From positions 1-51,414 of the forward strand of contig DAHVXI010000055.1 of the NCBI GenBank assembly GCA_027356795.1: a stretch of DNA of 51,414 nt, written 5' to 3'. The notes beneath the pieces were generated by a model. It was not told where the DNA came from and ran no database searches. It saw only the letters and a list, made by a program, of their open reading frames with translations. Both the position numbers and the translations under genes were made by a program. Shown here one piece after another: positions 3,428-49,393 of this stretch (the stretch's first letter is position 1; each line of letters begins with the position of its first letter). This DNA is from Chloroflexota bacterium (GTDB lineage Bacteria; Chloroflexota; UBA6077).

Positions 3428-3571
3428 TCACTTCCCCCCTGTCCCTGTTGCTATCGACATGATGTCCAGGTTGTCTCGCTTTTGCCACCCCAGGCGAGTC
3501 CAGAACTCGGAGCCCTCGTCGTTGCTCGTATGAACGAAGAGGTGGCACTTGGCGATTCCGGCTTCGCTCAG
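3428..3571 (-). pseudogene. C-terminal remnant of a GNAT acetyltransferase
   Basis: The open frame reads LSEAGIAKCHLFVHTSNDEGSEFWTRLGWQKRDNLDIMS...*. It has no start codon, and an in-frame TGA lies upstream inside the adjacent palindrome. Confidence 0.65.
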
Positions 3572-3577
3572 CCCTAC

Positions 3578-3712
3578 TCCTTTCCCTCTGGGAGAGGGAG
3601 ATTCGAGCCCTCACCCCGACCCTCTCCTCGAGAGGAAGTAGCTGCACACTGAGAACTCAGAACTCAGAACCTGGTGGGCGGGATGCCCGCGCTCCCGGCA
3701 GCACTCAGAACC
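3578..3712. repeat. CCCTCACCCCGACCCTCTCC...GGGAGAGGG palindromic element (family B) plus AGAACTC heptamers
   Basis: ttccctctgggagagggag...gccctcaccccgaccctctcc followed by gagaactcagaactcagaacc. Confidence 0.75.
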
Positions 3713-4745
3713 TCTCGTGCCGGTACTCCTCGACCGCCTCCACGATGGCGGCCAGGTTCTGGTTGGGCGTCACCAGAGGAACCGCGCACTCGGGGCCGAC
3801 GATGGGGACCCCGGCCTCCAGCAGCCGGCGCACCTGGGCCTTCACCAGCTCGGGCGTCCCCTGCAGCAGGGTCTCCGGATTGTTGACGTTCCCCACCAGG
3901 GTGATCCGGCCATCGACGATCTCCAGGGCCCTGGTAGCATCCACTTTGGAGTCGAAGTGGAAGGCATCGAAGCCGGCCTGGGCTATGTAGTCCAGCCGGT
4001 TGGTGGTGTTGCCGCAGATGTGCAGGATGGTGGGGCAACCCAGCCTGGCAGTGATCTCCTGGTGGATCGGCAGCAGGAGGTCTCGATAGCAGCCGGGGCT
4101 CACCAGGTCGCCGGTAGCGTGGTCCGCCACCACCAGAACGTCGGCTCCGGCCCTCATCTGGGCCTTGCCGAAGAGGACGGTCACCTCTTTCAGAACGTCG
4201 AGGAACTGCCCCACCCTGTCAGGGTTGTCGATGGTATCCACCAGGAAGGGCTGGATGCCGTGCAGATGGTAGGCGAGGGTCCAGGGCCCCATCACCTTGC
4301 CGACGAGGACTGCGTGGTCGCCGTGGTGCTGCCGGAGCAGCCGGAGCGCCTCCAGGACGGCTCGGATGGATGGGCGTTCCAGGAAGTCCTCGGGGATGGC
4401 GATCTCCTCGGGGTCGCGGTAGGGGGTGGTGGTGTTGACCGGCATGTTCTGCCGATCGCCCCAATCCACCTCGCATCCGAGGGCCGCGGCCTCCTGCTGG
4501 ACGCTGAAGATGGGGGCGATGGTGTCGTAGCCCAAGAGGTCGTGGCCCGCGGCCGCTAGGATCGCCATCTTCTCGCCGTCGAGATGGGCGTCGGGGAAGA
4601 AGGAGCCGCTTCTCTCCATCAGCTCCACGGTGGCGATGGAGGTGGGGTTCCCGACGGGAGTACGATCTACACGGCCGCCGAAAAGGGCGGCCAGGAAGCG
4701 CCGTTTCGGGGACATGGGCACCGGGGATGGTCTTGACGAGCCCAT
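3705..4745 (-). CDS. MtaA/CmuA-family methylcobamide methyltransferase (URO-D superfamily)
   Basis: EAAALGCEVDW, GKVMGPWTLA, Zn-binding LHICG, GNVN and GPECAVP motifs. Confidence 0.85.
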   Translation of the reverse strand: MGSSRPSPVPMSPKRRFLAALFGGRVDRTPVGNPTSIATVELMERSGSFFPDAHLDGEKMAILAAAGHDLLGYDTIAPIFSVQQEAAALGCEVDWGDRQNMPVNTTTPYRDPEEIAIPEDFLERPSIRAVLEALRLLRQHHGDHAVLVGKVMGPWTLAYHLHGIQPFLVDTIDNPDRVGQFLDVLKEVTVLFGKAQMRAGADVLVVADHATGDLVSPGCYRDLLLPIHQEITARLGCPTILHICGNTTNRLDYIAQAGFDAFHFDSKVDATRALEIVDGRITLVGNVNNPETLLQGTPELVKAQVRRLLEAGVPIVGPECAVPLVTPNQNLAAIVEAVEEYRHERF

Positions 4746-9392: not shown

Positions 9393-10670
9393 TTACGCCT
9401 CGGTTCCCGCAAGGGTCTTGCCGGCCTTGTGGCCGTTGCCGGACCGGTTCTCCATGGGGCCAAGCCCCGCCTCGGCCCGCAGGGCGGCCGCCTTGTCGGT
9501 GATCTCCCAGGGGGCGTCGATGTCGTTGCGACCGAAGTGGCCGTAGGCCGCGGTGGCCTTGTAGATGGGCCGGCGCAGCTGCAGGTGGTGGATGATGGCG
9601 GCCGGCCTCAGGTCGAAGTGCTTCTTGACCAGCTCCAGGATCTTGGCCGGGGCCACCTTCTCGGTGCCGAAGGTCTCGATCATGATGGACAGCGGCCTCG
9701 CCACGCCGATGGCGTAGGAGATCTGGATCTCGAACCGCTCGGCCAGGCTGGCGGCCACCACGTTCTTGGCCACGTATCGGGCCATGTATGCGCCGGATCG
9801 GTCCACCTTCGTCGGATCCTTGCCGGAGAAGGCGCCGCCACCGTGGCGGGCCATGCCGCCGTAGGTGTCCACGATGATCTTGCGGCCGGTCAGGCCCGCG
9901 TCGCCCATCGGGCCACCTATGACGAAGCGCCCGGTCGGGTTGACGTAATACTTGGTCTTGTCGTCCAGCATGTTGGCCGGGATGATCTGCCTGACGACCT
10001 CCTCCAGGATGTCGGTGCGGATCTTCTCGTAGTCGGTGACCGGGTCGTGCTGGGCGGCGATGACGACGGTGTCGACCCTCTTCGGCTTGCCCTGGGAGTA
10101 CTCCACCGTCACCTGGGACTTGCCGTCGGGCCTCAGGTAGGGGAGCACCTTCTCCTTGCGCACCAGCGACAGCTGCTTGCACAGCTTGTGGGCCAGGGAG
10201 ATGGGCAGCGGCATCAACTCCTCGGTCTCGTTGCAGGCGAAGCCGATCATCATGCCCTGGTCGCCGGCACCGGTGGCCTCGATCGCCCTGTCCCACGCCT
10301 CGCCGGATCTCACTTCCAGCGCCTTGTTCACGCCCTGGGCGATGTCCGGCGACTGCCCCTTGATGGAGACGATCACGCCGCAGGTCTCGGCGTCGAAGCC
10401 GTACTTGGCCCTAGTGTAGCCCACGTCCCTGACGGTGTTCCGAACGATCTCAGGGATGTCCACGTAGCAGTTGGTGGTGATCTCGCCGGCCACCAGAACC
10501 AGGCCGGTGGTAGCAGCGGTCTCGCAGGCGACCCGACCGTTGGGGTCCTGCTCGATGATCGCATCCAGCACGGCATCCGAGATCTGGTCGCACAGCTTAT
10601 CCGGATGCCCTTCGGTGACCGATTCCGAGGTGAAGAAGCTCTGCTCGGCCGACATGAAGGTGTTGCTCAT
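9393..10670 (-). CDS. metK: S-adenosylmethionine synthetase
   Basis: [19 protein letters not shown] and GGGAFSGKD motifs; true start is ATG 10670. Confidence 0.97.
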
Positions 10671-10690
10671 TCTCTCGCTCCTCTCTCTGC

Positions 10691-10729
10691 AGCCATCAGC
10701 TATCAGCCAGAAGCTGATGGCTGATGGCT
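10691..10729. repeat. Inverted heptamer hairpin (GCCATCA/GCTATCA)
   Basis: agccatcagctatcagc-cagaa-gctgatggctgatggct between ahcY and metK. Confidence 0.8.
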
Positions 10730-10732
10730 CAC

Positions 10733-12022
<1,290 letters not shown>

Positions 12023-12050
12023 TCACTAAGCTGTCGGTTACAACGTTGAG

Positions 12051-13055
12051 CTAGCTGCTCTGGTAACTACTCTGCCGGTGCCGACCTAACCCCCCCGCCC
12101 AGGAGAAAGCCAGCCGCTGGCAGTCGTCGGCGTGCTTGCAGCTGTGCTCGAAGAAGGTGAGCCGCTGGAACTCCTGGTATCTCTCCTCTATCTCCTCCCG
12201 TGTGGCGGAGAGAAGCCGGTTGACGCTGAAGTCCTCCACGGTGAAGGAGGCGATGACGCTGCCGTGAACCATCGCCTTGCGGATGCCGGTGGTGCTGAAG
12301 TCGCCGGTGCTGGCCAGGTAGCCCAGGAAGCCACCGGCGAAGGAGTCGCCTGCCCCCGTGGGGTCTTTCACGCTCTCCAGGGGATAGGCGGGGGCGATGA
12401 AGATCTCCTCGCCCACGTCCTGGGATATCATCAGCGCCCCATACTCACCCTTCTTGATGATGATCGCCTTTGGGCCAAGGGCCAGGATGCTGCGGGCCGC
12501 CGCCAGCAGACTGTAGTTCTGGGCGTACTGGCGCACCTCGGCCTCGTTCAGGAGGACGATGTCCACCCTCTGGATGACCCGGGTCAGATCCTCTTTCTTG
12601 CGCTCGATCCAGTAGTTCATGGAGTCGAGAACGGTCAGCCGGGGCGAGCCGGTCTGGGCCAGGACGTCCATCTGCAGGTTGGGATCGATGTTCCCCAGGA
12701 ACACCAGCTTGCTGGCCCGATAGTCCGCGGGCAGCGCGGGGTGGAAGTCCACCAGCACGTTCAGCTGGGTGTCCAGGGTGTGGGCCGTGTTGAGGTCGAA
12801 ATCGTACTGGCCCGCCCAGCGGAAGGTCCTGCCCGGCAGGGTCTGGAGCCCTGCCACCTCGACGTGGTGGCTCTTGAACAGCTGCCGGTACTTCTCCGGG
12901 AAATCCTGGCCGACCACGGCGACGATCTTGACGTCGGTGTAGTGCCGGGCGGCAAAGGCGAAGTAGGAGGCAGTCCCTCCGAGGGCCTCCTCCACCTTGC
13001 CGAAGGGGGTCTCCACGCTGTCCAGGGCGACGGTGCCCACGACCATCAGACTCAC
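12051..13055 (-). CDS. PfkB-family kinase (possible adenosine/nucleoside kinase)
   Basis: DPTGAGDSFAGG signature; the GTG start overlaps the mtnP stop (GTGA). Confidence 0.88.
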   Translation of the reverse strand: MSLMVVGTVALDSVETPFGKVEEALGGTASYFAFAARHYTDVKIVAVVGQDFPEKYRQLFKSHHVEVAGLQTLPGRTFRWAGQYDFDLNTAHTLDTQLNVLVDFHPALPADYRASKLVFLGNIDPNLQMDVLAQTGSPRLTVLDSMNYWIERKKEDLTRVIQRVDIVLLNEAEVRQYAQNYSLLAAARSILALGPKAIIIKKGEYGALMISQDVGEEIFIAPAYPLESVKDPTGAGDSFAGGFLGYLASTGDFSTTGIRKAMVHGSVIASFTVEDFSVNRLLSATREEIEERYQEFQRLTFFEHSCKHADDCQRLAFSWAGGLGRHRQSSYQSS

Positions 13056-13858
13056 GATATCACCGCCGATTGAAGCGCCGACCCGCAACCGCAATGCTGC
13101 CGTTCCGTCGGGATAGCCGGGATCAGCTTGAAGATCATGTCCCTGACCCGCCGGTTGTTGTCGCCGAAAACCCTCATCACCTCCTCGGCGGTCACCGGCT
13201 CGATCCCGGTTCCCTCCAGGCCGACGTCGTAGTCGGTGATCAAGGAGATGTTGACGTAGCAGATCTCCAACTCCCGAGCCAGAGCCACCTCCGGGTACTG
13301 GGTCATATTGATGATCTCCCACCCCATGCCGCTGAACCACTTGCTCTCGGCGCGGGTGCTGAAGCGAGGACCCTGGATCACCACGGCCGTCCCAGCGGGA
13401 TGGACGGTGATGCCCAGCCGCTGGCCGGCCTCGATGGTCAGCTCCCGCAGCTCCGAACAGTAGGGGTCGGCGGTGCTGATGTGGATGGAGACCGGGCCGT
13501 CGTAGAAGGTATCCTTACGACCGGTGGTTCGGTCGACGAACTGGTCGCAGATGACGAAGTCGCCGGGCTTGATGTGGCGCTGCAGGCTGCCCACGGCGCT
13601 GGGGGCGATGATGCGGGTGACCCCCAACGACTTCATGGCCCACAGGTTGGCCCGGTAGTTGATGGCGTGGGCCGGGTGCCTGTGGCCGTGCCCATGTCGG
13701 GGCAAAAAGGCCACCTTGCGGCCGCCGACCTCCCCCAGGGCGATCCTATCGCTGGGGGCGCCGTAGGGGGTGTTGATGGCCCTCTCCTCGACGTTCTCCA
13801 GCAGTTGGTAGAAGCCAGACCCTCCGAAGACGCCGATCTCTGCCACGGGTTGGTCCAT
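13052..13858 (-). CDS. mtnP: S-methyl-5'-thioadenosine phosphorylase
   Basis: IGVFGGSG, LPRHG, NYRANLWA, GPRFSTRAES, NMT..PE and TDYD motifs. Confidence 0.92.
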   Translation of the reverse strand: MDQPVAEIGVFGGSGFYQLLENVEERAINTPYGAPSDRIALGEVGGRKVAFLPRHGHGHRHPAHAINYRANLWAMKSLGVTRIIAPSAVGSLQRHIKPGDFVICDQFVDRTTGRKDTFYDGPVSIHISTADPYCSELRELTIEAGQRLGITVHPAGTAVVIQGPRFSTRAESKWFSGMGWEIINMTQYPEVALARELEICYVNISLITDYDVGLEGTGIEPVTAEEVMRVFGDNNRRVRDMIFKLIPAIPTERQHCGCGSALQSAVIS

Positions 13859-13877
13859 GCTGTTGTCCTCCGTGCTA

Positions 13878-14927
<1,050 letters not shown>

Positions 14928-15001
14928 CGGTGCGGGATACCTCGCTAGGTAGCCACCGGTTGGGCGAGAGGATGGAATCGGAGGGGTTCGTCCTGCGGAC
15001 A

Positions 15002-15032
15002 CAAAAAGGCTTCTCCATAGGAGAGAAGCCTT
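15002..15032 (-). terminator. Riboswitch expression-platform terminator
   Basis: AAGGCTTCTC-TCCTATG-GAGAAGCCTT-TTTGT. Confidence 0.85.
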
Positions 15033-15042
15033 GCATTACTCC

Positions 15043-15946: not shown

Positions 15947-18900
15947 CTACAGGGTTCGGCTTCCCGCTGTTGTCGCTTGCTCCCGCGCACCATGCACAGC
16001 CTGGGCCTCTTGCCGCAGCTCCTCCAGCAGATCCTGAAGCAGCGGCATCCAGCCGTCGCCCCGACCGCGCTGAAGCCGGATCTGGTTGGGGAGGACCCTC
16101 AGCCGAGAGCCGTGATGGCGCTGCAGCCTTCCCCGCACCGTGAGGGGTATCCCCTCCAGCTTCACCAGGATCTCTCCCTCCAGGGTGGAGATGGACTTGA
16201 TCCCGATGCGGGACGCCAGCAGCTTGACGTTCAACAGGTAGAAGAGGTTCTGGGCTTCCACGGGCAGCGGGCCGAAGCGATCCTGCACCTCCTCCAGCAG
16301 CCCGCCCAGCTCCTCCTCCTTCGCCAGGGCTGCCAGCCGCTGGTAGAGGCTGAGCCTCGCGGCATCGTCCACCACGTACTCCTCCGGCAGGTGGGCCGGC
16401 AGCGGCAGATCGACGCTCACCTGCGGCTCCACCGGCGCGGACTGCTTGCCCTGGAGCTCGGCCACAGCCTCGGCCAGCAGCCGGGTGTACAGGTCGAACC
16501 CCACGGCGTTGACCTGTCCGTGCTGCTCCACCCCCAGCAGGTTGCCGGCACCTCGGATCTCCAGGTCCTTCATGGCGATCCGGAAGCCGGATCCGAGCTC
16601 GGTGTTCTCGAAGATGGTCTTCAGCCGCTTTTCGGCCGTTTCGGTCAGCTGCTTGCTCCGGTTGTACAAGAAGTAGCCGTAGGCGCGGTTGGCCCCTCGC
16701 CCCACACGGCCTCGCAGCTGATACAGCTGGGCTAGGCCGAAGCGGTCCGCCTGGTTCACCACTATGGTGTTCACGTTGGGGATGTCCAGACCCGACTCGA
16801 TGATGGTGGTGCACACCAGGACGTCGTGCTGTCCCTCGGCGAACTCCATCATCACCCTCTCCAGCTGCTCCTCCGGCATCTGGCCGTGGCCCACCACGAT
16901 GCGTGCCTCGGGCACCAGCCTCTGGATGTGACTCGCCACGAAGTGGATGTTGTGCACCCGGTTGTGCACGAGGTAAACCTGTCCGCCCCGGTCCATCTCC
17001 CGCAGGATTGCCTCCCGCACCAGGCTGTCGCTGTGCTCCGCCACGAAGGTGCGGATCGGTAGCCGGTCCTCGGGCGGCGTCTCCATGGTGCTCATGTCCC
17101 GGATCCCGGACAGCGCCATGTGGAGGGTCCGGGGGATAGGGGTGGCGCTCAGAGTCAGCACGTCCACTCGCTGGCGCAGCTGCTTCAGCCGCTCCTTGTG
17201 CATCACCCCGAAGCGCTGCTCCTCGTCCACGATCACCAGCCCCAGCTCTTTGAACTGGACGTCCTTCTGGATCAGCCGGTGGGTGCCGATGCATATGTCG
17301 ACGGCGCCCGCCCGCAGCCCCTCCACCACCTGCCTCTGCTCCCTATCGGAGCGGAAGCGGGAGAGCACCTCCACGTTGACCGGGAAGGGTCCCAGCCGCT
17401 CCCGGAAGGTGTTGTGGTGCTGCTGGGCCAGTACCGTGGTCGGCACGAGCACCGCCACCTGCTTGCCGTCCATCACCGCCTTGAAAGCAGCCCGCAGCGC
17501 CACCTCCGTCTTTCCGTAGCCGACGTCGCCGCAGATCAGCCGGTCCATGGGTCGGGCCGTCTCCATGTCGGCCTTCACCTCCTGGATCGCCTGAAGCTGG
17601 TCCGGCGTCTCCAGGTAGGGGAAGGAGGACTCCAGCTCCCCCTGCCAGGGCGAGTCCGGCGGGAAGGCGTAGCCCGACTGGGACTGGCGGGCCGAGTAGA
17701 TCGCCAGCAGCTCCTTGGCCACGTTCCGCACGGAGTTCCTGACCCGCTCCTTGGCCCGAGTCCAGTCGGAGGTGCCCAGCCTGCTGAGGGCCGGCCTCTC
17801 CTCGCCGGCCCCAACGTAGCGGGAGACCCGGTCCACCTGGTCGACGGGGACGTACAGCTTGTCGGCCTCAGCGTACTCCAGCAGCAGGTACTCCCGTTCG
17901 CCCGCCTCGGTGGACATCTTCTGGAGGCCCAGGAAGCGGCCGATGCCGTGCTCCACGTGGACGGCCATCTCCCCCTCCACCAGGTCGCTCAAGAAGGCTT
18001 CCCGCGGGGCGGCACGGCGGCGCACCACACGGTGGACCTTGGTCCAGCCGAAGATCTCGGCGTCCCCCAGCACCACGACCCCCAGCGCCTCGCTGGACCA
18101 GCCGTGGCGCAGGGAACCCTGGACCAGGTGGAGACCCGGCGCCGGTGTCTCCGAGATCGCCTGCTCCGGCACGATGGAGCGGTCCTTCTCCTCGGCCAGC
18201 AGGTCGGCCAGCCTCTCGCTCTGCTGGCTGACCAAGACAACCAGGTGCTGCGTGCTGCGTGCTGAGTGCTGGGTGCTGAGTGCTGGGTGCTGAGCAGCGG
18301 ACTTCTCACCCCACCCCTCTCCCCTCCCCGCTGCGGGGAGGGGCCGGGGGAGAGGTCTGCTCCCCGTCTCCCCGTCTCCCCGCCTCCCGCTCACCCCGTC
18401 GGCGAGGGCCAGAGCCTCGTCCAGGACGAGCGGCAGCCTGCCGCCGTAGCTGGGCGGCGCGGTGAAGGGGAGCTCCAGGGCCTCCGGGTCGTAACGCATC
18501 TCCATCAGAGGCCAACCGCCGGCCTGGGCGGAGGCGTAGAGGCTCCCCCACTCGTGGAGCGCCGGCGGCAAGCCGCTCGGGATCTCTGCCCGCTCCACGG
18601 CCTGCCACTGCAGGTGGGTTGCCTGCTCCAGCAGATCGTCCCCCACGGCCGCGATCTGGGCGGGATCGTCCAGCACGAGCAGCCCCCCTTCGGGCAGGTA
18701 GTCGAGGAGGGTGCTGTGGCCCAGGAACCCCCGGTAGAAGCCCAGGGAGGCGCAGGCCTGCCCCTCCACCAGCAGGTCCAGCTCCCTGGCGAGGGTCTCC
18801 TGCGAGGCGGGCGAGCAGGCGGACAGATCCAGCGCCCGCAGCCGCGATCGGGTCTCCTCGTCGGCGGGAGGGAGCACCTCGTGGGGTGGGGTGATCTCCA

Positions 18901-19708
18901 CCTCCTCCAGGCGATCCACCGAGCGCTGGGTGGCCGGATCGAAGGCGCGAATCGACTCGATCTCGTCTCCGAACAGCTCGATGCGGAAGGGAGTGGGGCT
19001 GCCCGGCGGGTATACGTCCAGGATGCCGCCCCGGCGGCTGAAGCTGCCCGGCGTCTCCACGACGCTCGCCGGTTCGTAGCCCATCTCCACCCACCGCTTC
19101 AGGGTAGCCTGGAGCGGGAGCCGCCGCCCGGCCCGCAGCCTTTGCACCGCCCGGCTCAGCTCCTCGGGGGACATCACCCGCTCCATCATCGCCCGCCCGC
19201 CGGCGACCACCACCAGGCCGGTGCTGGGTTCCAGCTCCCTCTCCCCCTGGGAGAGGGTCGGGGTGAGGGCTCGTGCGAACTGCCGAGTGCTGGGTGCTGA
19301 GTGCTGGGTGCCGGCGGCTGGTGGCTTATGGCCGATAGCTGACGGCTGATAGCTGATAGCTGATAGCTCGCGCATGGCGAACAGTCGTGCCGCCGTGGCG
19401 GTTGGGTCGGCGGGCATGCGCTCGTAGGGCAGGGAATCGGGCTCGGGGAACAGCAGCACCCGATCGGGATCGGCCGACCAGAGGGCGATCTGCTCCTGCA
19501 GCTCCCGGGCTCGGCCCGGCCGGGCCGTCACCACCAGGATGGGCACGCCCAGCCGCCGCTGGAGGGCGGCCAGCAGGTAGGGCTTGGCGCCCTCGGCTAC
19601 GGCCAGGGCAGCAGGATCCCTCCGGCCCAGCCGCTCCAACAGGGATGCAAGGCCGGGCCATCGGTCTATCAGGTCGAGCAGACCGTGCAGACGAAGTGTA
19701 GTTTCCAT
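15947..19708 (-). CDS. mfd: Transcription-repair coupling factor carrying two in-frame repeat insertions
   Basis: UvrB-homology region RGGILDVYP, RID HVEHGIG, GDVGYGKTE, DEEQRFG, ATPIPRT, QLRGRVGR and TRG motif DLEIRGAG. Confidence 0.96.
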   Translation of the reverse strand: METTLRLHGLLDLIDRWPGLASLLERLGRRDPAALAVAEGAKPYLLAALQRRLGVPILVVTARPGRARELQEQIALWSADPDRVLLFPEPDSLPYERMPADPTATAARLFAMRELSAISYQPSAIGHKPPAAGTQHSAPSTRQFARALTPTLSQGERELEPSTGLVVVAGGRAMMERVMSPEELSRAVQRLRAGRRLPLQATLKRWVEMGYEPASVVETPGSFSRRGGILDVYPPGSPTPFRIELFGDEIESIRAFDPATQRSVDRLEEVEITPPHEVLPPADEETRSRLRALDLSACSPASQETLARELDLLVEGQACASLGFYRGFLGHSTLLDYLPEGGLLVLDDPAQIAAVGDDLLEQATHLQWQAVERAEIPSGLPPALHEWGSLYASAQAGGWPLMEMRYDPEALELPFTAPPSYGGRLPLVLDEALALADGVSGRRGDGETGSRPLPRPLPAAGRGEGWGEKSAAQHPALSTQHSARSTQHLVVLVSQQSERLADLLAEEKDRSIVPEQAISETPAPGLHLVQGSLRHGWSSEALGVVVLGDAEIFGWTKVHRVVRRRAAPREAFLSDLVEGEMAVHVEHGIGRFLGLQKMSTEAGEREYLLLEYAEADKLYVPVDQVDRVSRYVGAGEERPALSRLGTSDWTRAKERVRNSVRNVAKELLAIYSARQSQSGYAFPPDSPWQGELESSFPYLETPDQLQAIQEVKADMETARPMDRLICGDVGYGKTEVALRAAFKAVMDGKQVAVLVPTTVLAQQHHNTFRERLGPFPVNVEVLSRFRSDREQRQVVEGLRAGAVDICIGTHRLIQKDVQFKELGLVIVDEEQRFGVMHKERLKQLRQRVDVLTLSATPIPRTLHMALSGIRDMSTMETPPEDRLPIRTFVAEHSDSLVREAILREMDRGGQVYLVHNRVHNIHFVASHIQRLVPEARIVVGHGQMPEEQLERVMMEFAEGQHDVLVCTTIIESGLDIPNVNTIVVNQADRFGLAQLYQLRGRVGRGANRAYGYFLYNRSKQLTETAEKRLKTIFENTELGSGFRIAMKDLEIRGAGNLLGVEQHGQVNAVGFDLYTRLLAEAVAELQGKQSAPVEPQVSVDLPLPAHLPEEYVVDDAARLSLYQRLAALAKEEELGGLLEEVQDRFGPLPVEAQNLFYLLNVKLLASRIGIKSISTLEGEILVKLEGIPLTVRGRLQRHHGSRLRVLPNQIRLQRGRGDGWMPLLQDLLEELRQEAQAVHGAREQATTAGSRTL
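18244..18400. repeat. Composite in-frame insert in mfd: GTGCTGA heptamers, family B-like palindrome and CTCCCCGT octamers
   Basis: Encodes GVSGRRGDGETGSRPLPRPLPAAGRGEGWGEKSAAQHPALSTQHSARSTQH. Confidence 0.85.
19235..19368. repeat. Composite in-frame insert in mfd: family B palindrome and GCTGATA/GTGCTGA heptamers
   Basis: Encodes ELSAISYQPSAIGHKPPAAGTQHSAPSTRQFARALTPTLSQGERE. Bases 19235-19270 match intergenic 22906-22941 at 35/36 nt. Confidence 0.88.
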
Positions 19709-19710
19709 CG

Positions 19711-19780
19711 ATCAGCTATCAGTTCTCAGCAGTCAGCAGTCAGCCACCGTGTTGAGGCTGACGGCTGACTGCTGACTGCT
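19711..19780. repeat. Inverted heptamer hairpin filling the pth-mfd spacer
   Basis: tcagctatcagttctcagcagtcagcagtcagcc...ggctgacggctgactgctgactgct. Confidence 0.8.
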
Positions 19781-19784
19781 CCCC

Positions 19785-20342
19785 CTACGCGTTGAACTCG
19801 TTCATGGCTGCTTCCATCCCCTCGGCCAGGGTAGCCTCGACGGCCTCCACCGCCCGGTTCAGTGCCTCCTCGATGAGGGGACGCTCCTCGGCGGAGAATC
19901 TGCCCAGGACGTGATCCACGGCCTCTATCTCCGCCGGCCGGCCGATGCCGATCCGAAGGCGGGGGACGTCGCTCGTTCCCAGCATCCCGATGATGGATTG
20001 CAGCCCCCGGTGGCCGCCCGCGCTCCCCCTCTCCCTGAGCCGGATCTTTCCCACCGGCAGGTCGCGCTCGTCGTAGACCACCAGCAGGTCCCTGGGAGAG
20101 AGCTTGTAGAAACGGACGAGGCATACCACCGCCTCGCCGCTCAGATTCATGAAAGTCTGGGGTTTGGCCAGACACACCCGGTGGCCGGCCAGGGTCCCTA
20201 GGGCCGTGAGGGCGTTGCACTGCTTCTTGGTAACGTCGACGCCGCAGCGCCGCGCCAGCCGGTCCAGCACCATGAACCCCACGTTGTGCCGGGTGTTGGC
20301 GTACCTGGAGCCGGGGTTGCCCAGTCCCACCACGAGCTTCAC
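19785..20342 (-). CDS. pth: Peptidyl-tRNA hydrolase
   Basis: VVGLGNPG..Y..TRHNVGF, KPQTFMNLSG, GSAGGHRG and RLRIGIGRP motifs. Confidence 0.95.
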   Translation of the reverse strand: MKLVVGLGNPGSRYANTRHNVGFMVLDRLARRCGVDVTKKQCNALTALGTLAGHRVCLAKPQTFMNLSGEAVVCLVRFYKLSPRDLLVVYDERDLPVGKIRLRERGSAGGHRGLQSIIGMLGTSDVPRLRIGIGRPAEIEAVDHVLGRFSAEERPLIEEALNRAVEAVEATLAEGMEAAMNEFNA

Positions 20343-22905: not shown

Positions 22906-22941
22906 CTCCCTCTCCCCTTGGGAGAGGGTCGGGGTGAGGGC
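22906..22941. repeat. Family B palindromic element
   Basis: ctccctctccccttgggagagggtcggggtgagggc. Confidence 0.85.
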
Positions 22942-22964
22942 TGTAGCAGGGGTACCGGCGCTGA

Positions 22965-24651: not shown

Positions 24652-24750
24652 CCTCTCCCTCTGGGAGAGGCCGCCCGAAGGGCGGGTGAGGGCTGCTTCG
24701 ACGCTTGCGACCAAGCCCTCACCCTGACCCTCTCCCAGAGGGAGAGGGGA
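24652..24750. repeat. Inverted pair of family B elements between convergent genes
   Basis: ctctccctctgggagagg...ggtgagggc and gccctcaccctgaccctctcccagagggagagggg. Confidence 0.82.
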
Positions 24751-34436: not shown

Positions 34437-37400
34437 CTACCAGTTCAGCTTGCTCAGCTTCCGCACGTATGCGAAGGTGTCGCGGTTGACGCCGATGGGA
34501 CCCCAATAGTTGAAGGCGTAGGTGAACTGGGCATAGCCTCCTGCCATCAGCACCGGGTTCAACCGGATGCGGGTGAGGCTGTTGTGGGTGCCGGCCCGTT
34601 TGTTCCCCCGCAGCGGCGACTTGGGGACCGAGATGGTGCGCTCCGGCGCGTGGTAGAAGAAGGCCGTGCCCCTCGGTATGCGGGCGCTCACCACGCACCG
34701 CGTCACCACCACGCCGTTGTCGTTGTACACCTCCACCCAATCGTTGTCCCGCACCCTCAGCGCCTCGGCGTCTCGATCGTTCAGCCAGAATGGCTCCACC
34801 CCTCGGGACAGGGTCAGCATCCGGTGGTTGTCCATGTAGGTGGAGTGGATGTGCCACTTGCCGTGAGGGGTAAGCACGTTGACCAGGAGGGCGCTTCGGT
34901 CCACCTGGCTGTTCTCCATCTCGTTCAGAACCAGCGGGCTCGCCTTGGCCTTGTAGGTGGGCAGCTGCTCCCCGAACTCCAGGTACAGCTGGTGGTCCAG
35001 GTAGAACTGCTGCCGCCCCGTCAGGGTGCGCCAGGGGACCAGCCGGTCCACGTTGAGGGCGAAGCCGGTGTAGGCCCGGCCGTCGTTGACGATCCCCGAC
35101 CAGCAGGGGCTGGTGAGGAAGCGGCGGGGCTGGTCCACCAGGTCGGCGAAGCTGTACCGGACCCCCCGGTACTTCTCGGCCAGATCTGTGAGGGGCAGAC
35201 CCACCTTCGCCTCCTCCTCCTTGAAGGCCCGATAGGCCACCTCTCCGTTGGTCTCCGGGGCCAGCAGCAGGATTGCGTTGGCCGCGTCCACCACCTCCGA
35301 CAGGGAGGGGTATCGCCGCCCGTCCCACTCGACGGTGGGGGACTGGGCAAGCATCTGATCGTACAGATCGTCGACCTTCCAGCGGATCCCGTGGGCGCCG
35401 ATGCCCGCCGCCCGGACCGTCGGACCCAGGGAGATGAAGCGGTTGTAGAGGTTGGCGTAGTCCCGCTCCACCACCGACATCCAGGGCATGGTCTTGCCGG
35501 GGATGGGTGCGCACTCCCCCTTAGCCCACTCCCTGATCTCCGGCTGGGCGATCTCGTCGGGTGTGTCGTGGGCCAGGGGCGTGCACACCAGGTCCTTCAC
35601 CGGATCGGGCAGGTGGGTCTGGGCGAGCTCGGATACCTTCTTGGCGATGGCTTTGAAGATCTCCCAGTCGCTCTTGGACTCCCAACATGGGGGCACCGCC
35701 TCGCCCAGGTTGTGGACGTAGGAGTGGAGGTCGGTGGTGTTCAGGTCGTTCTTCTCGTACCAGGTGGCGGCCGGCAGGACGATGTCGGAGTAGAGGGCGG
35801 AGGTGTCCATCCGGAAGTTGAGGTCCACCACCAGGTCGATCTTCCCCTTGGGGGCCTCGGGCCGCCACACTACCTCCTCGACCTTCCCCTCGGCCTGCTC
35901 CCGGGCCATGGCGTTGGAGTTGGCGTCCAGGTAGTGGCGCATGAAGAACTCGTGGCCCTTGGCGCTGGCCATCAGGGCGTTGCCGCGCCAGATGAACCAG
36001 AGTCGGGGCCAGTTCTCCGGGGCGTCCGGGTCCTGGACCGCGAAGCGCAGCGGCGACGGGGAGACGGGATGACTGGGCGACGGGGAGACGGTTTCCTCTC
36101 GCCCCGTCTCCCCGTCGCTCTGTCGCCCCGTCTGGAGCTGCTGCACCACCCAATCCACGACCTCCTGGTCGGTCTGGGCGCCGGCCGCTGCCGCCTGCTG
36201 CACCAGCTCCAGGGGACTGCGGTCGAACTGGGGGTAGGAGGGCAGCCAGCCCATCTGCACCGCCTTCACCTGCACGTCCATGGTGTGCCCCCTGGCGTAC
36301 CGGCCGCCCGGCGGCACCGGGTGGTAGGCGGTGAAGTCGCCCTCGTAGCGCCACTGATCGCAGTTGACGTAATGGAAGGAAGGGGTGTTCTGCTGCCTGG
36401 GGGGCTTGACCCAGTCCAGGGCGAAGGCCAGGGTGGACCAGGACGCGAAGGGCGCCACCTTCTCCTGGCCGACGTAGTGGTTCATGCCGCCGCCGTTCTT
36501 GCCCTCGCAGCCGCACAGCATCAGGGCCGTCATGGCGGAGCGGTAGATCAGGTTGCTCTGGTACCACTGGTTCACGCCGGCGCCCACGATGATCATCGAC
36601 CGGCCCTCGGTGCGCTCGGCGTTGCCGGCGAACTCCCGGGCGAAGTGGATCACCGTCTGGCCGTCGATGCCGGTGAACTTCTCCTGCCAGGCGGGGGTGA
36701 AGGGGACGTCCTCCTCGTAGCCGGTCGGGTACTCCCCGGGCAACCCCCTGGAGACCCCGAACTGGGCCATCATCAGGTCCAGGACGGTGGCCACCGCCAC
36801 CCGACCCTGCTCCGTCTCCAGGTACTTCACCGGCACGCCCCGGGCCGGAGGCTCGCCGTCGCCGAACTCCGTGATCCGGACCGGCAGGATGGCGTCTTCA
36901 TGGCCCAGCAGCGACAGGGCGGGGTCTATGGGGGAGCCGTCGAGGCCGTCCTCGTGCTGGAGGTTCCAGCCGCCCTTCTCGTGGCCCCAGCGGAAGCCTA
37001 TGCTCCCCCTGGGCATTCGGAGGTCGCCGGAGAGGCGATCGTAGACCAGGAACTTCCAGTCGCCGTTCTCCGCATCCCGGTAGCGGGCCAGGGACTTTGC
37101 GCGGAGGAGCCGATCCGGTCGATAGGTGGCTCTGGCGCTCCAGCCCTCACCCCGACCCTCTCCCATGGGGAGAGGGAATCCGTCCCCACCCGCTCCCTCT
37201 GGGTGAGGGTGTTTGCTGTCTGCCGACCTCTCGGGTCGGAGAGTCACCAGGAAGCTGCAGTCGGTGTAGCGCTTCAGGTAGTCCAGGAAGTAGGGGACCT
37301 GCCGGTCGACGTAGAACTCCTTCAGGATGACGTGGTTCACGGCCATCCAGAAGGCGCCGTCCTGGCCGGCGCTCACCGGCAGCCACCAGTCGGCGTACTT

Positions 37401-38216
37401 GGACACCTGGCTGAAGTCGGGCGATAGCACCACCAGCTTGGTCCCGTTGTGGCGCGCCTCGGCCACGAAGTGGACGTCCGGCGTGCGGGTCATGCTCAGG
37501 TTGGCGCCCATCACCACGATGTACTTGGAGTTGTACCAGTCGGCGCTCTCGCAGACGTCGGTCTGCTCGCCCCACACCTCCGGAAAGGCGTTGGGCAGGT
37601 CGGCGTACCAGTCGTAGAAGCTGAGGACCGTCCCTCCGATCAGGCTGAGGAAGCGGGAGCCGGCGGCGTAGCTGAGCATCGACATGGCCGGGATGGGGGA
37701 GAAGCCCACCACTCTATCCGGGCCGTGGCGCCGGATGGTGTAAATGGTGGAGGCGGCGATCAGCTCCAGCACCTCGTCCCAGTCGGTCCGGCGGAAGCCG
37801 CCCTTGCCTCGGGCACGCTGGAAGCTGGACCGGGCCGCCTCGTCCTCCATGATGGAGGCCCAGGCCTCCACCGGGTCGGCGTGCCGGCTCCTCGCCTGCC
37901 GCCACAGATCCAGCAGAACGCCGCGAGCGTAGGGATACTTCACCCGAAGGGGGCTGTAGATGTACCAGGAGAAGGAGATGCCCCGCTGGCACCCCCTGGG
38001 CTCGTAGGGGGGAAGCCCGTCCCCCAGCTTGGGGTAATCCAGGGCCTGGTTCTCCCAGGTGACGATGCCGTCCTTGACGAAGACGTTCCACGAGCAGCCT
38101 CCGGTGCAGTTCACCCCGTGGGTGCTGCGCACCGTCTTATCGTGCTGCCAGCGGTTCCGATAGAACTCCTCCCAGCTGCGCTCGCCGGGGCTCAGGATGT
38201 CCTTGATCCAGCTCAT
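34437..38216 (-). CDS. narG: Nitrate reductase/nitrite oxidoreductase alpha subunit (Mo-bisPGD, cytoplasmic type) with two in-frame repeat insertions
   Basis: [47 protein letters not shown] and FNYWGPIG motifs; no Tat signal. Confidence 0.93.
36052..36133. repeat. Inverted octamer-repeat hairpin in-frame in narG
   Basis: Five GGMGACGG-type units, a spacer and four CCCCGTCK-type units. Confidence 0.85.
37143..37211. repeat. Family B palindrome in-frame in narG
   Basis: gccctcaccccgaccctctcccatggggagaggga...gggtgagggtg. Confidence 0.88.
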
Positions 38217-40600: not shown

Positions 40601-40648
40601 ACCTCTCCCCGGCCCCCTCCCCGACACGGGGAGGGGGCCGGGGAGAGT
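40601..40648. repeat. Family B-like hairpin after the methyltransferase stop
   Basis: cctctccccggccccctccccg-aca-cggggagggggccggggagag; resembles the mfd insert at 18317-18356. Confidence 0.7.
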
Positions 40649-44577: not shown

Positions 44578-44655
44578 AACCACAAAGACCCTAAGACCCT
44601 AAGACCCTAAGGGGCACCAAGCTCTCCTGGTGGTTCTTCGTGTCCTGGTGTCCTG
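44578..44655. repeat. Inverted 8-9-mer repeat element (ACCACAAAGAC..AAG / CTTCGTGTC)
   Basis: aaccacaaagaccctaagaccctaagaccctaag...cttcgtgtcctggtgtcc; related half at 46240-46274. Confidence 0.65.
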
Positions 44656-49334: not shown

Positions 49335-49370
49335 TCCCCTCTCCCTCTGGGAGAGGGTCAGGGTGAGGGC
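49335..49370. repeat. Family B palindromic element
   Basis: tcccctctccctctgggagagggtcagggtgagggc between copA and copZ. Confidence 0.85.
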
Positions 49371-49393
49371 TGTGACGAGTCCGAGCGCAGTAT

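Follow-up and report, generated by a model that had tools for sequence, protein, structure and literature searches.

Non-triplet short repeats in frame within loops of Mfd and a NarG-like protein of a Chloroflexota bacterium

Introduction

How does the gene of a highly conserved enzyme hold a tract built of repeat units of 7 and 8 nucleotides (nt), neither length being a multiple of three, and still read as one protein? The question is raised by mfd, the gene for the transcription-repair coupling factor Mfd, in a bacterium of the phylum Chloroflexota (GenBank assembly GCA_027356795.1, contig DAHVXI010000055.1), of which a stretch of 51,414 nt with a G+C content of 66.7%, referred to throughout as the window, was analyzed. 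In this gene three families of short repeats are combined in an in-frame segment, here called insert 2, and another repeat-derived segment, insert 1, occupies a loop closer to the N-terminus; the two sites are called loop 2 and loop 1. Insert 2 was first noticed by a reader who had only the letters and no database searches (the sequence-only reading), and who proposed repeated insertion at one permissive loop or, as an alternative, removal of the segment from the RNA or the protein, along with a potential phase-variable switch.

The answer developed below is that insert 2 is built from repeat families that are dispersed in the window, and that the same loops vary among related proteins. Our preferred interpretation, which we hold to be probable, is that a permissive loop between a helix and a strand of D3, a variable domain of Mfd, tolerates clusters of genomic repeats, which are translated there as a disordered segment.

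The host gene and the make-up of insert 2

The gene in question is taken from the list of open reading frames (ORFs) and its translation. Its product contains, in the correct order, a UvrB-homology module, an RNA-polymerase-interacting domain, superfamily 2 (SF2) translocase domains and a C-terminal TRCF domain, the corresponding Pfam matches being UvrB_inter (residues 191-275), CarD_TRCF_RID (577-632), DEAD (701-863), Helicase_C (900-1004) and TRCF (1101-1184), all above cut-off. Its profile matches solved Mfd structures over the full length, with E values from 1.8e-241 to 9.4e-213 for the PDB chains. The sources of the relatives of the window's proteins name them Chloroflexota or Chloroflexi, with the exception of P0007, which is named Sphingomonadaceae.

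Read on the sense strand, insert 2 runs from octamers through a palindrome to heptamers, with the strand LVVLVSQQ directly after. Tandem Repeats Finder, an inverted-repeat search and translation bear out its coordinates, content and order as first described, as well as its length of ~52 residues and its ~7 heptamers; the one correction concerns the octamers, of which only 2-3 of ~5 copies are well kept (5.1 copies, 78% matches, score 54 in Tandem Repeats Finder). The arms of the palindrome are 24 nt each and 79% complementary, and its DNA fold has a z of -2.54, with only 4 of 200 shuffles folding better. For the heptamer array, in which three unit variants alternate, the same program returns 7.1 copies with 88% matches and a score of 72, or alternatively a 14-nt unit repeated 3.6 times with a score of 88. 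Such arrays are far from chance expectation: a pattern of three heptamer units with at most one mismatch has seven matches in the window, all of them within mfd, against 0.00 expected from 100 shuffles, and a pattern of two octamer units, again with at most one mismatch, has three against 0.08. At up to two mismatches the two-unit octamer pattern does not rise above chance (7 matches vs 4.32, a count of 7 being reached by 15 of 100 shuffles).

The mfd inserts are without a coding signature, as their G+C content is flat across codon positions: the values for the first, second and third positions are 0.73/0.69/0.77 in insert 2 and 0.63/0.63/0.69 in insert 1, against 0.74/0.43/0.90 in the remainder of mfd. 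In both, disorder-promoting residues are abundant and hydrophobic ones scarce, the fractions for insert 2 being 0.75 vs 0.54 elsewhere in the protein and 0.10 vs 0.34, respectively. No terminator or promoter site was found between 17900 and 19900. The coordinates of these and the other features are collected in Table 1.

Table 1. Repeat-bearing genes and repeat features of the window (strand: -, minus;., unstranded)
Feature	Position	Strand	Description
mfd (transcription-repair coupling factor)	15947..19708	-	1253 aa; ORF open throughout
mfd insert 2	18245..18400	-	residues 437-488, 52 aa, 156 nt; three repeat families combined
Heptamer array in insert 2	18245..18294	-	unit GTGCTGA, sense NCAGCAC; read as QHPALSTQHSARSTQH stretch
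Palindrome in insert 2, degraded	18305..18359	-	arms 18308-18331 and 18333-18356
Octamer array in insert 2	18360..18400	-	unit CTCCCCGT, sense unit GGGGAGAC; read as GRRGDGETG stretch
mfd insert 1	19220..19366	-	residues 115-163, 49 aa; two heptamer arrays and one family A hairpin
Heptamer arrays of the pth-mfd spacer, inverted orientation	19711..19780	.	from pth stop to mfd start; DNA fold z -5.87
narG-like nitrate reductase alpha subunit	34437..38216	-	1259 aa; in-frame repeat inserts at 37140-37241 (A) and 36054-36125 (B)
Hairpin family A in narG	37142-37177		blastn-short, 94-97% identity
Hairpin family A, intergenic copies	22906-22942, 24714-24748, 49337-49371	.	blastn-short, 94-97% identity
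Hairpin family A, partial copy	3604-3627		blastn-short
Intergenic palindrome	40601..40647	.	perfect 21-nt arms; nearest kin of the mfd palindrome; DNA fold z -9.03

Why the reading frame stays open

The sequence-only reading had seen correctly that units of 7 and 8 nt lie within an open frame, and had sought a particular reason for it; the observation stands and the particular reason turns out to be unnecessary. A tandem unit of either length passes through all three frames, and the array remains open throughout if the unit is stop-free in every phase. This is the case here, as all the repeat units are stop-free in three frames when read as in mfd, so that only the total length of an insert has to be a multiple of three. 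The orientation is of consequence for the heptamers: three heptamer units contain stops when read in the opposite orientation, the unit ending in A is stop-free only in the orientation read in mfd, and all three heptamer arrays of mfd lie in the permitted orientation. The octamer is open both ways. The open frame of insert 2 thus needs no special mechanism, and the survival of a functional translocase guarantees a length that is a multiple of three.

Comparison with orthologues

The alignment of Mfd orthologues comprises 18 of 121 sequences (the query and 120 listed hits), namely every full-length hit with at least 53% identity and four more distant ones, with the partial hits P0014 and P0015 dropped; the maximum-likelihood tree was computed with both variable loops masked and with P0002, a near-identical record whose longest contig, of 39,377 nt, marks it as separate from the window, left out. 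In this tree P0003 is the sister of the window's Mfd with a support of 100/100 and branch lengths of 0.0095 and 0.011, and differs from it at ~27 residues (~2%) outside loop 2. At loop 2 itself P0003 has 8 residues vs the 53 of the window's protein, all four outgroups have 5-7, and the orthologues without repeats range overall from 5 to 17. The alignments with the Mfd structures of Mycobacterium smegmatis, M. tuberculosis and Escherichia coli in the PDB break around insert 2, and also at query residues 116-157/166, that is, at insert 1. An equally long conserved segment at loop 2 of the orthologues would have spoken against an insertion, and none is present in the alignment. Insert 2 is therefore an insertion and not a conserved domain, given that the closest orthologue has 8 residues at this place and the outgroups 5-7.

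Both loops are sites of turnover. Within a clade of 13 members (support 100/100), repeat-derived words of at least five residues are found at loop 1 in 10 members and at loop 2 in four, and another two members have loops that are long, at 32 and 38 residues, and degenerate; none of the four outgroups has such words at either loop. Insert 1 is shared with P0003 and is missing from more distant relatives. The mixtures of repeats at the two loops differ among related species, and hairpin family A, described below, is read at loop 1 of P0005 from the strand opposite to that read in P0001 and P0003, which points to independent insertion, or to inversion, at one and the same loop. At loop 2, P0001 and P0006 have an identical three-part order as well as identical flanking residues. 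With orthologous loops of 5-17 residues, with different mixtures in relatives and with opposite orientations of the hairpin, the repeated insertion at a permissive loop and the in-frame survivors that had been proposed from the sequence gain in weight.

In P0002, insert 2 is of equal length, and the sole residue that differs from the window's Mfd, apart from the called start, is R484P (codon 484, 18256-18258), inside the heptamer tract. The Mfd loci of other genomes are more distant, the best identities among the matches listed being 61% for L039 and 58% for L056. In the latter the loop at the site of insert 2 is short, and a long insertion without repeats lies at another place in D3. In L061, from a metagenome-assembled genome of Dehalococcoidia, 4.5 units of CCAGCAC-like heptamers, of one type with those of mfd in the window, lie in frame in the linker between D6 and D7 (L061:3176-3207). 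The core of family A occurs in none of 80 Mfd loci from other genomes among the matches listed. The only close one of 20 shorter-protein hits, the Mfd fragment P0138 (476 aa, on an 808-kb contig), drifts out of frame at several places and looks like the product of indel errors in a long-read assembly and not like a split gene.

Position of the inserts in the protein

When the orthologue profile is aligned with E. coli Mfd, loop 2 falls opposite TFDGP, a turn of five residues that connects a helix with a strand and that by a chain offset of 21 residues corresponds to about native residues 380-384. The 2006 crystal-structure paper reportedly places these residues in D3. Loop 1 falls opposite a short turn ahead of a strand in the first domain (D1a), and both inserts, according to the alignment, would lie between a helix and a strand of the solved structures. 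As regards D3, it is described as a non-conserved and lineage-specific domain whose function is unknown (PMC7864632), and as a mobile unit between flexible linkers (PMC7385628; PMC13453472); it shifts by ~47 Å and has been proposed to regulate repair (PMC7385628).

The same repeat families elsewhere in the window

Insert 1 is made of related parts. According to Tandem Repeats Finder and blastn-short, its heptamer arrays lie at 19315-19368 and 19281-19313 and its 36-nt hairpin of family A at 19235-19271. The NCAGCAC-type heptamer arrays at 18264-18290 and 19285-19311, about 1 kb apart in mfd, have 27 identical nt in common, including the same 14-nt super-period, which suggests copying or conversion between them. 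Upstream of the gene, the 76-nt spacer between pth and mfd consists almost entirely of heptamer arrays with a strong hairpin and would sit in, or near, the 5' leader of mfd.

Further copies of each component are scattered over the window. By blastn-short, a heptamer of the NCAGCAC type recurs within mfd at 19285-19313 and in the spacer at 2283-2299; the other copies of the insert 2 octamer are found only in narG, as an inverted pair at 36055-36133; and the palindrome of insert 2 has two sets of relatives, its inner part being 86% identical over 36 nt to 40601-40636 and the 19-nt flank that forms its outer part 89% identical to hairpin family A. The copy at 40601 is missed by a palindrome pattern of fixed spacing owing to an indel and is detected by blastn-short. 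Family A has five full copies in 51 kb (three intergenic, one in mfd and one in narG), and their alignment reveals a sharply bordered core of ~36 nt between flanks that are unrelated. Two spacers, 2223-2428 and 3570-3715, hold mixed clusters of heptamers and hairpins, so the stacking of several families is usual for these repeats and not peculiar to mfd. By our tally, 10 of the 14 repeat loci of the window are intergenic, and the four intragenic ones lie in its two longest genes, mfd and narG; a six-frame motif scan returned no in-frame inserts other than those in these two genes.

The narG-like gene provides the second instance of such inserts in a conserved protein. Its insert A contains the family A hairpin and, in the alignment with E. 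coli NarG, takes the place of a short gap between chain residues 343 and 349; insert B contains the octamer pair and falls between the adjacent residues 690 and 691. The two loops vary among the closest relatives. In an alignment of 15 sequences, taken from 120 listed relatives and composed of the 8 closest, among them that of the window, and 7 more distant ones, the second loop is longer by 19 residues or more in 7 of the closest group and in none of the distant one, and some of these long loops contain recognizable octamer or heptamer peptides.

Some other features of the repeats deserve mention. The family A hairpins at 22906-22942 and 49337-49371 lie 23-59 nt past the stops of minus-strand genes for a glycosyltransferase and a P-type ATPase, a terminator-like position. 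Heptamer arrays are present at two junctions (10690-10729 and 13874-13890) of the methionine/S-adenosylmethionine (SAM) cycle genes that occupy 9393-15035 and encode SAM synthetase, adenosylhomocysteinase, a PfkB kinase, a nucleoside phosphorylase and an IF-2B/MtnA-like isomerase. The spacer at 44585-44611 holds a perfect octamer array, AAGACCCT x3.4, the sequence of which is unrelated to the G-rich octamers of mfd and narG. A role of G-quadruplexes was also considered, and the sense strand of insert 2 does have two such motifs and each copy of hairpin A one; the idea was dropped, as the window has 15 motifs vs 20.05 +/- 4.29 in shuffles and is thus not enriched.

Discussion

The course of events that we envisage begins with repeats that would spread mostly to intergenic DNA and occasionally into genes, where selection, confined to the role of a filter for frame, stops and fold, would remove each insertion that disrupts either frame or fold. 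The survivors would be those in a stop-free orientation, with a total length that is a multiple of three, and in permissive loops only; the arrays may afterwards grow, shrink and decay. Candidate routes of spreading are slippage, template switching and a hairpin-specific transposase. Insert 2 would then stay in the mRNA, and its translation would yield a surface loop of 52 residues, low in complexity and probably disordered.

Several points weigh against this account, or at least restrain it. In the tree P0003, P0004 and P0009 branch among P0001 and P0006 and yet are without insert 2, so that a simple recent gain does not fit; the distribution would need several losses, parallel gain, or an exchange of alleles through recombination. 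That the insert is translated and retained is predicted from the sequence, and the arguments for its exposure at the surface and its disorder are its composition and the gaps in alignments. The tally of intergenic and intragenic loci is our own compilation and covers 51 kb. Lastly, long loops recur at two sites in many relatives, and the extra length could be favored and not merely tolerated.

This last point leads to the alternative in which the inserts were selected for, with the repeats as raw material, because added length in a flexible loop or linker of D3, D1a and NarG is advantageous, for instance in tuning the movements of D3. The long repeat-derived Mfd loops do recur (10 of 13 members at loop 1, and four at loop 2 with two more long loops), the second NarG loop is long in seven of the eight closest sequences, the ~47 Å movement of D3 has been put forward as regulating repair (PMC7385628), and for the tandem repeats of Borgs it has been argued that they were selected to create disordered regions (PMC9879509). 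If length were at a premium, however, it would have to be so with sequence, length and repeat family varying freely among relatives, with a sister lineage, P0003, that has no insert 2, and with a G+C content by codon position that shows no adaptation, and we regard selection for the loops as unlikely. Mfd is known as an evolvability factor, and a bolder extension of the account can be imagined, in which the heptamer, octamer and hairpin families are an active system that lands preferentially side by side, the D1a and D3 loops of Mfd and the two NarG loops become self-renewing nests that generate disordered segments across the Chloroflexota lineage, and mfd is made switchable as a side effect; to this we would attach little credence, somewhat less than to selection for the loops.

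A switch could also be the primary role of the heptamer tract, which would then be a contingency locus where the gain or loss of 7- or 14-nt units turns transcription-coupled repair off and on in a population. The part of this idea that follows from a unit length not divisible by three is borne out by simulation: a change of 7 or 14 nt leads to a stop at residues 571-616, ahead of the polymerase-binding domain or inside it, and the frame is kept when 21 nt are changed. Heptanucleotide tracts drive phase variation in Haemophilus (PMC8262952, PMC12721329), and the only residue that differs in P0002 does lie in the tract. The switch as such finds no support, however, since the tract is imperfect, the longest perfect run being by our reading a 14-nt unit x2.6 and not a long perfect tract; the tract of P0002 is of equal length; and no split Mfd appears among close relatives in the 20 shorter-protein hits, which cannot show rare variants within a population. 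In addition, the same repeat families are present in narG and in spacers, and the tracts of relatives are decayed and not maintained, so that this reading is, in our judgment, very improbable.

Known inteins are far larger than 52 residues, and the junction residues of insert 2 do not fit those that are conserved in inteins, both of which argue against removal of the insert after translation. For its intron-like removal after transcription one could invoke the RNA hairpin that the palindrome may form, and beyond this only the oddity of the sequence; against it, the 175-nt RNA of the whole insert shows no excess of folding over shuffles (z -0.54), and a scan of 17800-19900 with Rfam (E <=1) gave eight weak matches of hairpin type, of which the best scored 28.8 bits vs a gathering threshold of 100, with no intron family and no family near its threshold. 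With unrelated sequences at the same site in relatives as well, the removal at the RNA or protein level that the sequence-only reading had entertained is hardly to be believed. Only slightly less implausible is an artefact of assembly caused by the repeats. Short repeats are known to cause assembly errors (PMC9879509), but here the frame is kept, the flanks are colinear with those of the orthologues, P0002 has insert 2 with a single substitution, and a homologous insert of three parts is present in P0006, which comes from another source. What we are left with as the probable reading is the tolerance of repeat clusters in a permissive loop.

If so, short non-coding repeats with non-triplet units have been absorbed into highly conserved enzymes as lineage-specific disordered loops, and repeatedly at the same loops. 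The lineage thus offers a natural setting in which to study the origin of new protein segments from junk-like DNA. For annotation, the message is that odd low-complexity stretches in Mfd and NarG of Chloroflexota are real. The two Mfd and two NarG loops are marked as tolerant of insertions, which may be useful for tagging; a new function of Mfd is not indicated by insert 2 itself.

Comparison with known systems

Elhai and colleagues reportedly described, in 2008, very small mobile repeats of cyanobacteria that are hairpin-like and nested among mostly intergenic heptamers. The short tandemly repeated repetitive (STRR) sequences of cyanobacteria are similar to the repeats discussed here in being dispersed tandem heptamers, and heptanucleotides of Calothrix are mentioned in PMC4692102; they differ in that they belong to another phylum, the units discussed here being those of the window itself, and in that the arrays here lie inside loops of mfd and narG. 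More generally, heptamers are the most abundant class of long simple repeats in bacteria, in excess in spacers and depleted from coding DNA, with examples such as TAACTGA of Beggiatoaceae and the G-rich heptamers of Xanthomonas and Nostoc (PMC4679880, PMC4692102). The reports on such long simple-sequence repeats stress regulatory or G-quadruplex roles in spacers, whereas the arrays of interest here are within translated frames and quadruplexes are not enriched.

The tandem repeats of Borgs are fast-evolving, occur within ORFs and add disordered segments of low complexity (PMC9879509), and in these respects are close to the inserts of mfd and narG. Their in-ORF units, however, are all divisible by three, unlike the units of 7 and 8 nt found here, and the proteins concerned here are housekeeping ones and not extracellular. 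Repetitive extragenic palindromic (REP) sequences and REPINs are likewise short, GC-rich, imperfect palindromes in many copies, and two of the copies in the window follow stops at 23-59 nt; the difference is that some copies here are intragenic. A scan of 34 ORFs of the window turned up no REP-associated (IS200/IS605-like) transposase.

The nearest analogue of the mfd and narG inserts, by likeness of description, is the Rickettsia palindromic element (RPE). RPEs are selfish DNA and form dispersed families, with intergenic copies as well as copies that lie in frame inside conserved genes of unrelated kinds; according to a review of miniature inverted-repeat transposable elements, the resulting translational fusions are thought compatible with the fold of the host protein (PMC10969869). 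Two traits of such elements are found in the window, namely a dispersed family in many copies (hairpin A with five full copies, and heptamers and octamers at other sites) and in-frame occurrence in unrelated conserved genes, at sites where orthologues lack the repeats (two in mfd and two in narG). A third trait, a single element of ~100-150 bp with one conserved peptide, is not shared, as the units here are of 36, 8 and 7 nt and the peptides change with orientation and frame. The contrast is thus between a single element of ~150 bp that encodes a conserved peptide and a 36-nt hairpin stacked with arrays of 7- and 8-nt units that turn over between species. A limited search of the literature found no description of repeats of this kind in genes of Chloroflexota.

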